DNA of 64,000 nucleotides, taken from IMG/VR virus record IMGVR_UViG_3300017963_000203, positions 32,001 through 96,000 of that record; one strand, written 5' to 3'. The DNA is from a virus. Made by a program: the position numbers and the translations under genes. The notes beneath the pieces are model-generated. The model was not told where the DNA came from and ran no database searches. It was given only the letters and a program-made list of their open reading frames with translations. Each line of letters opens with the position of its first letter. The stretch's first letter is position 1. Below, one piece after another: positions 32,575 through 60,196 of the stretch.

Positions 32575-32593
32575 GTCATAAGAATGGTGAAAG
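32575..32593 (+). promoter_or_regulatory. candidate phage early promoter, copy 1
   Basis: GTCATAAGA-ATGG-TGAAAG immediately before an RBS. Confidence 0.65.
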
Positions 32594-32602
32594 GAGGTGT
32601 TC

Positions 32603-33052
32603 ATGGCCACGAAGAAGGACTCGAGCATCTTGCCGCTACCCAAGTGGTTCAAAGATGAAATGGCCAGGGAAAAGGAAAGAGAACAGCAAGAGAACTGGAA
32701 GAAAGCCTTCGAGATTCACGAGGCAAGGGCATCGACAAACCTGGACCGAGCACTCAGAGATGCGCCACAGAAGATCAGGGAGGTCGCCAGCCGAGACGAC
32801 GCACCCGAAGGTCTGCTTCAAACGGCCAAGAAGATCCTCAAGGCCGTGAAGATGCATGCCAAAGCGAACACGTGCATCCTCGTCGTCGGTGTCGCCGCGC
32901 TGACCTACCTCATCTCCCCCATCGATAGCATCCCCGACTTCATACCCGGAGTCGGACTGATGGACGACGCATTTCTTCTGGCGGCCGCGTGGGAAAGGAT
33001 CACCCACTGGTTCACAGACACGGACAAGATGAAACTCAGAAAACGATGGTGA
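32603..33052 (+). CDS. YkvA/DUF1232 family protein
   Basis: ALTYLISPIDSIPDFIPGVGLMDD motif. Confidence 0.85.
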   Translation: MATKKDSSILPLPKWFKDEMAREKEREQQENWKKAFEIHEARASTNLDRALRDAPQKIREVASRDDAPEGLLQTAKKILKAVKMHAKANTCILVVGVAALTYLISPIDSIPDFIPGVGLMDDAFLLAAAWERITHWFTDTDKMKLRKRW

Positions 33053-33075
33053 AGCGGCTCGTCGCCGCTTCTTTT
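33051..33075 (+). terminator. intrinsic terminator
   Basis: GAAGCGGC-TCGTC-GCCGCTTC-TTTT. Confidence 0.75.
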
Positions 33076-33088
33076 AGGGGAGGAGCAA

Positions 33089-33301
33089 ATGAGGATTCCG
33101 GAGACCATATCCAAGATGAAACTACGGAAGCTCAGGTGTTGCGACTGCATTTCCTTCGATCGAAAGACGAAGAAGTATTGCTTCCTGCTCAAGACCAAAC
33201 GCCGGCCCGATCAGCCGGCATGCAACCGGATACGAGTGGAGGAGGAGAAATCATGCAAGAAGTCTGGATCGGAAACTACGCCCACCGACCGTTCCGGGTA
33301 A
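33089..33301 (+). CDS. small Cys-rich hypothetical protein
   Basis: GGAGG RBS; CCDC..C..C. Confidence 0.6.
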   Translation: MRIPETISKMKLRKLRCCDCISFDRKTKKYCFLLKTKRRPDQPACNRIRVEEEKSCKKSGSETTPTDRSG

Positions 33302-33861
33302 CGGTCAAATTAGGCAAGATCGTGAAGGTGGAGGGCGACCTCGCCTGGGCGAAGGGAATGAGAATCCGCCATTTCAAGAGAACCGTCTGGAAGTACGGAG
33401 GGCCGAACCGTGTCGAGCGAGAACGAAGTACCAAAGACGCGAGCCGAAGTATCCCGGTCTCTCCACAAGATGGGGAGACTGAAAAAGCGCGCTCTCAAGA
33501 GGTCAGCCAAGAAGAGATCGAAGCAGCGCCGGCAGAGATCGAACGTGTCTTTCGTGGAAGGCACCACAATGACAAGGTGTCAAGTCTGCGGACACCTCCG
33601 GAGACAAGACCTTCCTTGCCACGAGTGCGGCGCCCCCGAATCTCGTCAGGAATGGGTCTGCGGAGAGCCCTCCGTGCCGCCAAGATCATGGGGTGCGAAG
33701 TGGACCACATCTGGGGCACTGGGGAGACGCGGATCTCGCACAGGCTGCTTCTCCAAGAAGACGGCAGCCGGCGAACAGTGGTTCTGAACCAGAGGAAGAA
33801 GGACGCTCCCCGCGCCCTGACCTCTTTTCTGACGCAACTCAAGGCGGCACTTCCGTCATAA
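33253..33861 (+). CDS. hypothetical protein (overlaps alternative-frame ORF 33410-33787)
   Basis: GGAGGAG RBS before ATG 33253; gene structure ambiguous. Confidence 0.5.
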   Translation: MQEVWIGNYAHRPFRVTVKLGKIVKVEGDLAWAKGMRIRHFKRTVWKYGGPNRVERERSTKDASRSIPVSPQDGETEKARSQEVSQEEIEAAPAEIERVFRGRHHNDKVSSLRTPPETRPSLPRVRRPRISSGMGLRRALRAAKIMGCEVDHIWGTGETRISHRLLLQEDGSRRTVVLNQRKKDAPRALTSFLTQLKAALPS

Positions 33862-33873
33862 GAGTAGTGAAAG
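33855..33873 (+). promoter_or_regulatory. candidate phage early promoter, copy 2
   Basis: GTCATAAGA-GTAG-TGAAAG. Confidence 0.6.
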
Positions 33874-33898
33874 AAACGGCCCTCATGCTCCACCACCG

Positions 33899-33928
33899 GA
33901 AGCGGCTCGAAAGAGTCGCTTCTTTTTT
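33899..33928 (+). terminator. intrinsic terminator
   Basis: GAAGCGGCTC-GAAA-GAGTCGCTTC-TTTTTT. Confidence 0.8.
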
Positions 33929-33942
33929 GTCTGGAGGTGTCC

Positions 33943-58134: not shown

Positions 58135-58368
58135 GTGAATCTCTCTGTGAAGCATCTGCGGATCAACCCGTACAACCAGAACCCGGAGGAAGTTCCGGAG
58201 GGCACGGAATACGGGTTCTGGCGCATCGTGGAGCACACTGGGGCCGGGTGGTTCGAGTGGGACGGTCTGTACAAGACCAAGGAGGAGGCCGAAACCGCTA
58301 TGAAGAAGGCCCTTGAAGCGGAGGAACGCAAGCATGGACCCGAACGAGTGTCTGAAGAAAATCGATGA
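58135..58368 (+). CDS. small hypothetical protein
   Basis: GGAGG RBS. Confidence 0.55.
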   Translation: MNLSVKHLRINPYNQNPEEVPEGTEYGFWRIVEHTGAGWFEWDGLYKTKEEAETAMKKALEAEERKHGPERVSEENR

Positions 58369-58531
58369 CTTCCTCCGCGCCTACAAATCGGGCGACGAGG
58401 TGGACCAGTGGTGCCGTGACCTCATGGAGTGGCTCGACAAGGGCGGCTTCGAACCCGACTGGAACGAGTACGAGTGGGGCACGAACTATTTCAAGTGCCG
58501 CCGAATCGAAGAAGCAAGAGCCGGGAGGTGA
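58334..58531 (+). CDS. small hypothetical protein
   Basis: MDPNECL..L.EWL.KGGF.PDW. Confidence 0.65.
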   Translation: MDPNECLKKIDDFLRAYKSGDEVDQWCRDLMEWLDKGGFEPDWNEYEWGTNYFKCRRIEEARAGR

Positions 58532-58533
58532 TC

Positions 58534-58953
58534 GTGTCCAAGCGTTTCTGTCCGATCTGTCACGTCGAAATCGACATCTTGTGGTCGGTCGAAGGGTGTC
58601 ACGGTGACGAGGTCATCATCGGAGTGTGCAAGGAACACGGCGCCGTGAAGCCCATTCTGGAGGAAAAGCAGCCTATGATCATCGGTCACGCCGGCGACAA
58701 GGCCTATCTGGATGGAATCTCCGGAATGGTGCCTTGCATCGTTCTGAAGGTGACTCCTGAGGAAGTCCTCGTGAGAATGGACGCCAAGAAGGGGGTCCTG
58801 TCCTGGCACGGAATCCAGGAGTACGGGGATTGGAATGAGGAGGTGTCTTGGACGCACAACCAGGTGGTGCCAGAACGTGCTGTTCGTTGGCCGGACGGCA
58901 AGAACTCGTTTCATCCGAGGATCATGCCCTACAAGTGGGAGGTGACCTCATGA
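58534..58953 (+). CDS. hypothetical protein
   Basis: CPIC..C.EHG; RBS present. Confidence 0.6.
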   Translation: MSKRFCPICHVEIDILWSVEGCHGDEVIIGVCKEHGAVKPILEEKQPMIIGHAGDKAYLDGISGMVPCIVLKVTPEEVLVRMDAKKGVLSWHGIQEYGDWNEEVSWTHNQVVPERAVRWPDGKNSFHPRIMPYKWEVTS

Positions 58954-59273
58954 CCAGAGTCGCCAAAGCCACCTGCCATCTCTGCGGGATCGACTACACG
59001 TGGCTTATGAGCGGGCGATGGTTCCGCGGAACGAAGGATACCTGTGATCGATCCAGCACGCTGTGCCCGGACTGTTACGAGAAGGTCATGGCGGGAATAG
59101 CAAAATGGTGCCAGGAGCGATCTCAGAATGACTGGAACGGCTTCGTGGATCACCTCGCCAACCAGAAGAGAATGCCGCTCCAGGCCATCCTGGTCGTGCT
59201 CGACGCGCTCGACAAGTTCTGCCCAGAGTGCTTCGATGCTGAGCGCCCATGCTTCTGTTCGAGGGATGACTGA
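58950..59273 (+). CDS. Zn-finger hypothetical protein
   Basis: CHLC, CPDC, CPEC..CFC. Confidence 0.65.
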   Translation: MTRVAKATCHLCGIDYTWLMSGRWFRGTKDTCDRSSTLCPDCYEKVMAGIAKWCQERSQNDWNGFVDHLANQKRMPLQAILVVLDALDKFCPECFDAERPCFCSRDD

Positions 59274-59710
59274 TGGAAAAACGATTCGTGTACTCCTGTC
59301 CCAACTGTGGTTCGACAGAAGTCCAGCTACGCTATCCCGTGTGGGTGGATGCGAATAACATCGACGACAAGGAGAAATGGGAGTTGGATTTCGAGGCTTC
59401 ACCAGAAAAGGACAGCGACTCCGGCTACTGCATGGAGTGCGGCAACACAGAACTCCTGAAGAAGGAGGTGGTCGACGAGCCGGAACTGATAGGAGGACCT
59501 GTGAAAGCGGAAACAAGATTTGTCTGTAAACACTGCTCGAAAGAAAACTGTCTCGAGCACTGCCAGGAGACCGAAGACGGAAAACATGAGGCGGACCCGC
59601 AGAGCGCGACCGTCCCGGCCGGCTCCGAGTTCCTGGTGGACTACACGTGCAAGCACTGTGGTCAATCCGGCTCCCTGGCCGTAGACGAGAAGGACATCAT
59701 GTGGGAGTGA
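59273..59710 (+). CDS. multi-Zn-ribbon hypothetical protein
   Basis: CPNC, CMEC, CKHC twice. Confidence 0.7.
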   Translation: MEKRFVYSCPNCGSTEVQLRYPVWVDANNIDDKEKWELDFEASPEKDSDSGYCMECGNTELLKKEVVDEPELIGGPVKAETRFVCKHCSKENCLEHCQETEDGKHEADPQSATVPAGSEFLVDYTCKHCGQSGSLAVDEKDIMWE

Positions 59711-59723
59711 GAGGGGGTGTTGC

Positions 59724-60143
59724 ATGGGAGGAAGCCTGAACCACATCCTGGGGGTCGACGGCGAATTCACGATGGTGTGCATCGACAACCTTGGCGACGC
59801 CTACGAGGCCTTGAAGGAGTGCTTCGACCTCATCGTGATTCTTTCCGAAGGGGATTGCAGCCACGTGTCAGCCGCCTGTCGGCGTCTCGGAATCGTAGAC
59901 CCGTACCGAAAGGAAGATCGCCTCGACGACGAGCCCATGCCCGAACCCATGGCAGTTCCGGAGCGCGTTCGGGTCAGATCTCAGACCGCATGGCCTCCCC
60001 ACGAGATCCTCCGACGCCTCGTCGACCTTGCCGAATACACGCTCATTGACCAGAGCTGTGATCGACACGGACACGAGGTCGACCGCGCGGCCGTAGACGC
60101 CGCCAAGGAACTCCTGAGAGACATGGGTCATCCAATCTACTGA
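59724..60143 (+). CDS. hypothetical protein
   Basis: 139 aa ending at a terminator. Confidence 0.65.
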   Translation: MGGSLNHILGVDGEFTMVCIDNLGDAYEALKECFDLIVILSEGDCSHVSAACRRLGIVDPYRKEDRLDDEPMPEPMAVPERVRVRSQTAWPPHEILRRLVDLAEYTLIDQSCDRHGHEVDRAAVDAAKELLRDMGHPIY

Positions 60144-60164
60144 GAGCCGAAAGGCTCTCTTTTT
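60142..60164 (+). terminator. intrinsic terminator
   Basis: GAGAGCC-GAAA-GGCTCTC-TTTTT. Confidence 0.85.
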
Positions 60165-60177
60165 ACACCCCCTTTCT

Positions 60178-60196
60178 GTCATGAGAACTATGGAAG
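60178..60196 (+). promoter_or_regulatory. candidate phage early promoter, copy 7
   Basis: GTCATGAGA-ACTA-TGGAAG. Confidence 0.6.

Follow-up and report, generated by a model that had tools for sequence, protein, structure and literature searches.

Phage-encoded sigma factors, such as gp28 and gp33/34 of SPO1 and gp55 of T4, redirect the host RNA polymerase (RNAP) to phage promoters. For SPO1, this redirection by a phage-encoded sigma is described in a part of PMC13401047. The phages phiKZ and AR9 have multisubunit-type RNAPs of their own, with promoters that are AT-rich or template-strand motifs; the passages on these enzymes in two reviews describe them as assemblies of 4-5 chains with no sigma homologs (PMC13282480, PMC7824862). 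According to passages of the same reviews, large phages have either a non-canonical RNAP without sigma or sigma homologs without an RNAP (PMC7824862, PMC13282480). Here we describe a motif from a phage lineage that combines both, a single-chain bacterial-type core and a full sigma. The motif lies in IMG/VR record IMGVR_UViG_3300017963_000203 (linear, 130,894 bp, ~68% complete, 60% G+C), and its core, GTCATAAGA, very probably defines a promoter class that this large-phage lineage uses for its non-structural genes. The window is a stretch of 64,000 nucleotides, bases 32001-96000 of the record; positions are those of the window unless marked as genome positions, which refer to the whole record.

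As with SPO1 gp28 and gp33/34 and T4 gp55, a phage sigma with its own promoter consensus would mark a temporal gene class in this phage. Unlike in those systems, the catalytic core is also phage-encoded, as one chain, and the sigma is full-length and group-1-like. With phiKZ and AR9 the phage shares a multisubunit-type RNAP with phage-specific promoters, and possibly a virion-borne enzyme; unlike theirs, its RNAP is a fused, bacterial-like beta-beta' accompanied by a true sigma. We found no published description of the promoter of this RNAP-sigma lineage in the literature searched, which included passages on its distant cultured relative, Salmonella phage Arash.

A preliminary description of the window had listed seven copies of GTCAYRAGA-N4-TRRA upstream of plus-strand genes. 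All seven are present on the plus strand where they had been listed; six fit the pattern exactly and the copy at 51943, which reads TGAG, misses TRRA by one base. The six exact matches are the only ones in the window, against 0.02 expected, and none of 100 shuffled sequences reached six. The 9-nt core by itself occurs nine times in the window, always on the plus strand (2.9 expected, maximum 7). Two of these copies, at 54787..54795 (+, 10.6 bits in the scan described below) and 55935..55943 (+, below the 10-bit listing threshold), lie within open reading frames (ORFs), have low scores and lack the downstream T-G; they are probably not sites. In an unbiased k-mer count, GTCATAAGA was the most over-represented 9-mer of the whole genome, with 8 copies, all on the plus strand, where 0.18 were expected.

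A position weight matrix (PWM) built from the sites and run over the whole record, with a listing threshold of 10 bits, returned nine strong sites of 23-35 bits (genome 17903, 64575, 65855, 67799, 76901, 77513, 83943, 92178 and 99011). All are intergenic, at gene boundaries, and lie upstream of genes on the plus strand that they share; the random scatter inside genes or over both strands that would have spoken against a promoter was not seen. Across 20 shuffles the maximum PWM score averaged 13.5, and the single highest was 23.3. The PWM scan is circular because the matrix came from the same sites, and the k-mer count is free of this circularity. Weaker sites were found at genome 23434 and 28509, both on the plus strand and at gene boundaries, and a further weak one, GTCAGGAGA-N4-TG, at genome 76538 (window 44538).

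The sites are placed as one would expect of promoters. In all nine strong sites a start codon follows 15-75 nt past the predicted start, the conserved TG, and in four of the nine a hairpin with a T-run stands directly before the site (window 44901, 45513 and 60178; genome 99011). According to a crude gene call and PHROG scans, all 12 strong and weak sites fall within plus-strand gene blocks (45% of the record), and none within the minus-strand blocks (55%). The plus-strand blocks encode replication proteins (a DnaB-like helicase, a split DNA polymerase, a helicase, a UvsX-like recombinase and a ligase); a thymidylate-synthase-like gene and an XRE regulator also lie there, together with many small ORFs. 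The minus-strand blocks hold the major head protein, the large terminase, a tail-fibre-like protein and the single-chain RNAP, the last as first gene of its block. The sites at genome 23434 and 28509 each precede at least 200 nt with no plausible ORF; Rfam identified the transfer-messenger RNA (tmRNA) and the tRNAs of the phage and nothing else, and a pairwise alignment of the two putative RNAs behind these sites was poor and uninformative. The preliminary description had called the promoter early; what the placement supports is a position ahead of non-structural units, whatever their temporal class. The promoter class would head non-structural units, comprising small genes, the thymidylate-synthase-like gene, the XRE regulator and probably two non-coding RNAs, on the strand opposite the RNAP and virion genes.

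Layout of the probable promoter and its conservation

All nine strong sites have a T three positions upstream of the core G (-3). If CATAAG is set at -12 to -7, the motif reads T(-17) n Y(-15) G(-14) K(-13) CATRAG A(-6), N4, T(-1) G(+1), which, judged from sequence, would be the geometry of an extended -10 promoter plus its start site, with the conserved T-G 5-6 nt past the hexamer. Position -15 is T in five strong sites, C in three and A in one, and G-14 is invariant. We then pooled 33 sites from four genomes, selected by the core alone. Counted from the core G, 26 of these sites have C at -20 and 26 have A at -18; from -50 to -22, A reaches 12 sites at most at any one position. This second block reads CCARAA (-34 to -29 in promoter numbering) and lies 16 nt ahead of CATAAG, so that the element consists of two hexamers at sigma-70 spacing.

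The motif would accordingly be the downstream half of a two-block promoter of the sigma-70-family type. The element works like an extended -10 promoter of this family and departs from it at -7 and in its -35 sequence. The earlier statement that the motif does not resemble a sigma70 -35/-10 promoter does not hold: G-14, A-11, T-10, A-9 and A-8 align with the extended -10 element, T-1/G+1 follows, and an upstream box lies 16 nt away. The agreement is partial. A-11 is invariant, but the -10 hexamer consensus fails at -7, where all 12 own sites and every site of the relatives have G; an upstream block was found within the 16-18 bp range, with a spacer of 16 nt, but its sequence is not TTGACA. Compared with bacterial extended -10 promoters (TGnTATAAT with a weak -35), the element has in common the two blocks 16 nt apart, G-14, A-T-A-A at -11 to -8, a predicted pyrimidine-purine start ~7 nt past the hexamer and a sigma-70-family protein, here encoded by the phage genome. 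It differs in its fixed bases, C at -12 (T in Arash) and G at -7, in the box CCARAA in place of TTGACA, in a -15 position that is only Y rather than T, and in the non-canonical region 2.4 and 3.0 residues of its candidate reader.

Homologs of the RNAP delimit a metagenomic lineage whose longest contigs reach ~190 kb. In its closest relatives (L006, L007, L008 and L013; RNAP 84-87% identical) every PWM match above 14 bits lies on the strand opposite the RNAP, as in the examined genome. Five orthologous site groups, assigned by their flanks, gave 19 pairwise comparisons among close relatives, with identities of 1.00 for the T at -3, 0.92 for the TG, 0.45 for the N4 spacer and 0.43-0.54 for the flanks; the core reached 0.97, a value inflated by the use of the PWM to locate the relatives' sites.

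More distant relatives were taken as whole IMG/VR records (G004-G007). In G005, whose RNAP is 50% and sigma 40% identical, the 9-mer that stands out most is once more GTCATAAGA, found 9 times on a single strand where 0.23 copies were expected, and G006 and G007 (RNAP 46-47%) use the form GKCATAAGT-N4-TG. Matches to G[GT]CATAAG[AT]-N4-TG exceeded those in shuffled sequence in each genome: 6 against 0.17 in the examined phage, 8 against 0.07 in G005, 7 against 0.17 in G006, 3 against 0.17 in G007 and 2 against 0.10 in G004. The RNAP lies on the strand opposite the motif in the examined phage, G005 and G006.

Arash (OQ632216.1) carries a related signal. The part of its genome examined, 94.5 of 181 kb, is enriched in GGTATAAG; of 15 copies 14 lie on the non-structural strand, and all five listed sites stand 34-48 nt ahead of annotated coding-sequence starts. 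As in the window, GGTATAAGW-N4-TG is found on the non-structural strand, opposite the RNAP and virion genes, and both RNAP and sigma are encoded. Unlike in the window, -12 is T rather than C, the RNAP is split in two genes, and there are two very divergent sigmas, one of them inside the virion block. An enriched, mostly strand-specific signal opposite the RNAP and before non-structural genes is found in the examined phage, G005, G006 and Arash.

The motif is strand-specific, intergenic, placed after terminators and before start codons, kept in relatives while its spacer drifts, and specific to phages with this RNAP, all of which bears out the proposal that it is a promoter; we regard this as highly likely. 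Other roles seem most improbable, among them an operator for a regulator (XRE or other), a signal acting at the RNA level, and a nicking or processing site specific to one strand. Copies confined to one strand would suit a nick site, those of the T5 type being all on one strand, and an XRE gene does lie behind copy 7. Against this, the motif is asymmetric and, as the preliminary description had said, not palindromic, its N4-TG is fixed, its upstream box lies at a fixed distance, and the minus-strand blocks, which a nick site would not avoid, hold no copy. Several cores adjoin a terminator T-run, which leaves no room for an upstream start and makes an RNA-level signal unlikely. An operator is unlikely as well, since the XRE protein has no tblastn match in the motif-bearing G004-G007 or in the Arash parts, whereas the sigma does.

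Candidate readers of the probable promoter

The preliminary description saw no sigma-factor gene, which is true of the window but not of the phage: a gene for a 320-amino-acid sigma-70-family protein lies at genome 29961-30923 on the plus strand, and it was missed because it stands 1.1 kb to the left of the window. Its Sigma70_r2 (36 bits) and r4 (41.6 bits) matches both pass the Pfam cut-offs, and r3 is weak. A sigma homolog was found in all five RNAP-bearing relatives searched, and the sigma gene is on the motif strand in the examined phage, G004, G005 and G006. The nearest solved relatives of the protein are primary sigmas. Aligned to a primary sigma, its region 2.4 changes from WWIRQAITR to HWIESQIRK and its region 3.0 from VH..E to PL..K. 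The altered positions include Q437 and T440, which we take to be the readers of -12, and H455 and E458, presumably the readers of the extended -10 TG. These substitutions are a family-wide signature that differs between genomes with GKCATAAGA (WIES/WIDS..IRKGL) and those with GKCATAAGT (WIDA/WIMA..VR); as only two clades are involved, this difference is weak evidence.

The single-chain beta-beta' RNAP (26318..32512, minus strand; 2064 amino acids) has Rpb2_6 and Rpb1_1/2/3/5 domains, and is encoded opposite every motif copy; the major head protein and the large terminase are encoded in the same minus-strand block, which the RNAP gene heads. The enzyme is of bacterial type, its best non-phage matches being bacterial beta and beta', and it has kept the beta' clamp-helix stretch to which sigma docks. 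A complex prediction with RNAP residues 1000-1420 and sigma residues 85-320 scored 0.00, which speaks neither for nor against binding. We found no alpha subunit (PF01000) and no second sigma past the cut-off; a weak r4-like match at genome 80173 is without Pfam support.

The most likely reader would be this phage sigma bound to the phage single-chain core. We consider it likely that the motif is read through the phage sigma, whichever core it is bound to, and for the complete statement, phage sigma on phage core, we lean towards yes. A serious rival is that the phage sigma steers the host core to GKCATAAG promoters, as SPO1 gp28 and T4 gp55 do, and that the phage beta-beta' reads something else. 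Regions 2 and 4 of the sigma, which bind the core, are ordinary, and phage sigma homologs usually work with host RNAP, according to passages of two reviews (PMC13282480, PMC7824862). We still hold this to be unlikely: sigma and single-chain RNAP co-occur in five of five relatives searched, the phage core keeps the docking stretch, no other specificity factor for that core and no second strong sigma match were found, and Arash virions contain both RNAP and sigma, as reported in a part of PMC10585845. In the same part of that paper, RNAP beta (Gp206) is the most detected protein of purified particles, and beta' (Gp216) and the sigma Gp10 were also found; the authors caution that abundant proteins may co-purify (PMC10585845). 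The word "promoter" has 0 occurrences in the available portion of its text (PMC10585845).

The preliminary description had proposed a compact promoter read directly by the fused RNAP. Its promoter part is very probably right; its sigma-free and non-sigma70-like part is not supported. Enzymes of the phiKZ and AR9 type do work without sigma homologs, as the passages of the two reviews state (PMC13282480, PMC7824862). The RNAP described here is of bacterial type and is accompanied by a sigma homolog in its own genome and in five of five relatives, and the promoter has a two-block sigma layout rather than a single short element, so that sigma-free reading is very improbable.

Another possibility is that the motif serves the host holoenzyme, with its primary sigma, as an extended -10 promoter with a poor -35, and that the phage sigma and RNAP act on other promoters. 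The extended -10 consensus is matched at G-14, A-11, T-10, A-9 and A-8, the T at -17 is reminiscent of the "-16 region" (TRTG) of Gram-positive bacteria, and a low-GC distant relative shows TTTTGTTATAAT at its PWM matches (L057, L066). T-7, however, is among the best-conserved -10 positions of bacterial promoters, and here each genome has a fixed G at -7 and a fixed C or T at -12, which makes reading by the host holoenzyme very unlikely. The motif also follows the phage lineage across differing hosts, such as Salmonella for Arash, and it occurs in phages without Shine-Dalgarno sites (G006), whereas the examined phage uses GGAGG.

Host-like promoters are found on the other strand, which also argues against the host holoenzyme as reader. 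Three minus-strand units are each headed by a host-like pair of hexamers spaced by 16 nt. The candidate for the RNAP gene (32539..32566, minus strand) reads TCGATT-16-TATAGT, and its hexamers are invariant and its spacer variable in the examined phage, L006, L007, L008 and L013. The candidate for the unit 38722-44509 (44561..44588, minus strand) reads TTGTCG-16-TAGAAT, and its counterparts in L006 and L013 read TTGCCC-16-TAGAAT with a different spacer. The third, TTGACT-16-GATAAT, precedes the tRNA cluster (genome 100666-100693, minus strand). Canonical sigma70 promoters are rare: over 131 kb, 3 sequences agree at 10 or more of the 12 positions, and in 20 kb, 3 were found against 3.5 expected. 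With the motif class on the plus strand and the host-like class at the heads of minus-strand units, the two classes are strand-exclusive.

Several observations weigh against the phage sigma on the phage core as reader of a lineage-wide promoter class. The region 4.2 helix of the sigma (TKERIRQIE) is nearly canonical, as in primary sigmas, so that a TTGACA-like -35 would be expected rather than CCARAA, and the TTGnCn-16-TAnAnT promoters of the other strand might be the targets of this sigma instead. No promoter was identified for the sigma gene, which sits on the motif strand, so that either the virion or host transcription must provide the first sigma. A proposed capsid-tag peptide is absent from both the sigma and the RNAP. 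A search of sequencing runs turned up no RNA run that contains this phage. Among relatives, the group with 62-65% RNAP identity gave 0 PWM matches (L009-L012, L024, L025, L032), G004 has just 2 matches to the pattern, and the sites of G007 lie on both strands. The Arash RNAP is ~31% identical and split, its sigmas are 16-19% identical to the sigma of this phage, and the record itself covers only ~68% of the phage genome.

Individual sites and their surroundings

Site 1 (32555..32589, plus strand; 34.7 bits) consists of the box GCAGAA, the core GTCATAAGA at 32575, N4 and TG. It is divergent from the RNAP gene, and a start codon follows 15 nt past the predicted +1. Its orthologs in L006, L007, L008 and L013 read GGCATAAGA, and the gene downstream of this RNAP-divergent site differs among relatives. 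Site 2 (33835..33869, plus strand; core at 33855, 34.5 bits) is followed, ~30 nt past the predicted start and ahead of the gene at 33943, by a strong intrinsic terminator-like hairpin (33898-33923); the interval 33868-33931 may be a short RNA or an attenuator. Site 3 (35779..35813, plus strand; core at 35799, N4, TA; 23.4 bits) has an inverted repeat, GTGGCTAT-N7-ATAACCAC (35769-35793), overlapping its -35 region. Core and repeat are both kept in the orthologs of L006, L008 and L013, and the repeat may be an operator.

The weak site GTCAGGAGA-N4-TG (44518..44552, plus strand; box CAAAAA) is divergent from the minus-strand unit starting at 44509, and its orthologs, at L006 2704 and L013 898, read GTCACGAGA-N4-TG. 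Site 4 (44881..44915, plus strand; core at 44901, 32.0 bits) comes immediately past a terminator hairpin of -25.5 kcal/mol; a start codon lies 15 nt past its predicted +1, and its orthologs are at L006 2339 and L013 520. Site 5 (45493..45527, plus strand; GTCATGAGA at 45513, box GGAAAA, 30.6 bits) adjoins the T-run of a terminator whose hairpin reaches -24.8 kcal/mol, with an ortholog at L006 2288. The 183-amino-acid gene between sites 4 and 5 is missing in L006 (2288-2347), where both promoters stand in tandem, 51 nt apart. Site 6 (51923..51957, plus strand; 29.9 bits) has the box CCAGAG and GTCACAAGA at 51943, with N4 and TG. Site 7 (60158..60192, plus strand; GTCATGAGA at 60178, past a terminator; 32.6 bits) precedes the XRE-type helix-turn-helix gene (60208-60468; HTH_3).

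We also considered GGCTATAC as a second promoter and rejected it. Its copies lie on both strands, several within genes, and three form palindromes GGCTATAC-N3-GTATAGCC, which is more operator-like. The palindromes are at 6260-6280 (minus strand), 55061-55082 (plus strand) and genome 107746-107766 (plus strand), one of them imperfect, and may be binding sites of a regulator; half-sites occur elsewhere on both strands. In G006, a 193-kb relative (L183-L192), a repeat with TGGCACTGG and CAGTGTCAG occurs in ~20 places on both strands.

Among the neighbouring genes, a Thg1-like tRNA-His guanylyltransferase domain (37632-38471, plus strand; 96.6 bits) is encoded in a non-structural block, and the phage encodes its own tRNA-His. 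Outside the window, a tmRNA gene lies at genome 24398-24759 (plus strand; 136.7 bits, tag ANPNTGSFTAPLAAVA), and 8 tRNA genes are clustered at genome 99746-100456 (minus strand).

A possible transcription programme for the lineage

The presence of RNAP and sigma among the proteins of Arash particles makes a virion-borne holoenzyme plausible for the lineage, but Arash is a distant relative. The holoenzyme described here would then possibly be delivered with the virion. We tentatively propose, while rating this full scheme as doubtful, that the holoenzyme is packaged and injected and transcribes the non-structural genes from CCARAA-16-GKCATAAG promoters without the host, and that host-like TTGnCn-16-TAnAnT promoters later serve the virion units, the tRNAs and the RNAP gene.

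A candidate promoter is now defined for this lineage, with a sigma-type layout and fixed bases of its own (C/T at -12, G at -7 and the CCARAA box). Together with a single gene each for core and sigma, this promoter of ~35 bp would make up a compact orthogonal transcription system, which can be put to a direct test in Salmonella phage Arash, a cultured relative with the same signal. The lineage also offers a natural experiment in how substitutions in regions 2.4 and 3.0 re-tune the recognition of the -10 element. If true, a packaged holoenzyme would mean an inverted, N4-like programme built of cellular-type parts.

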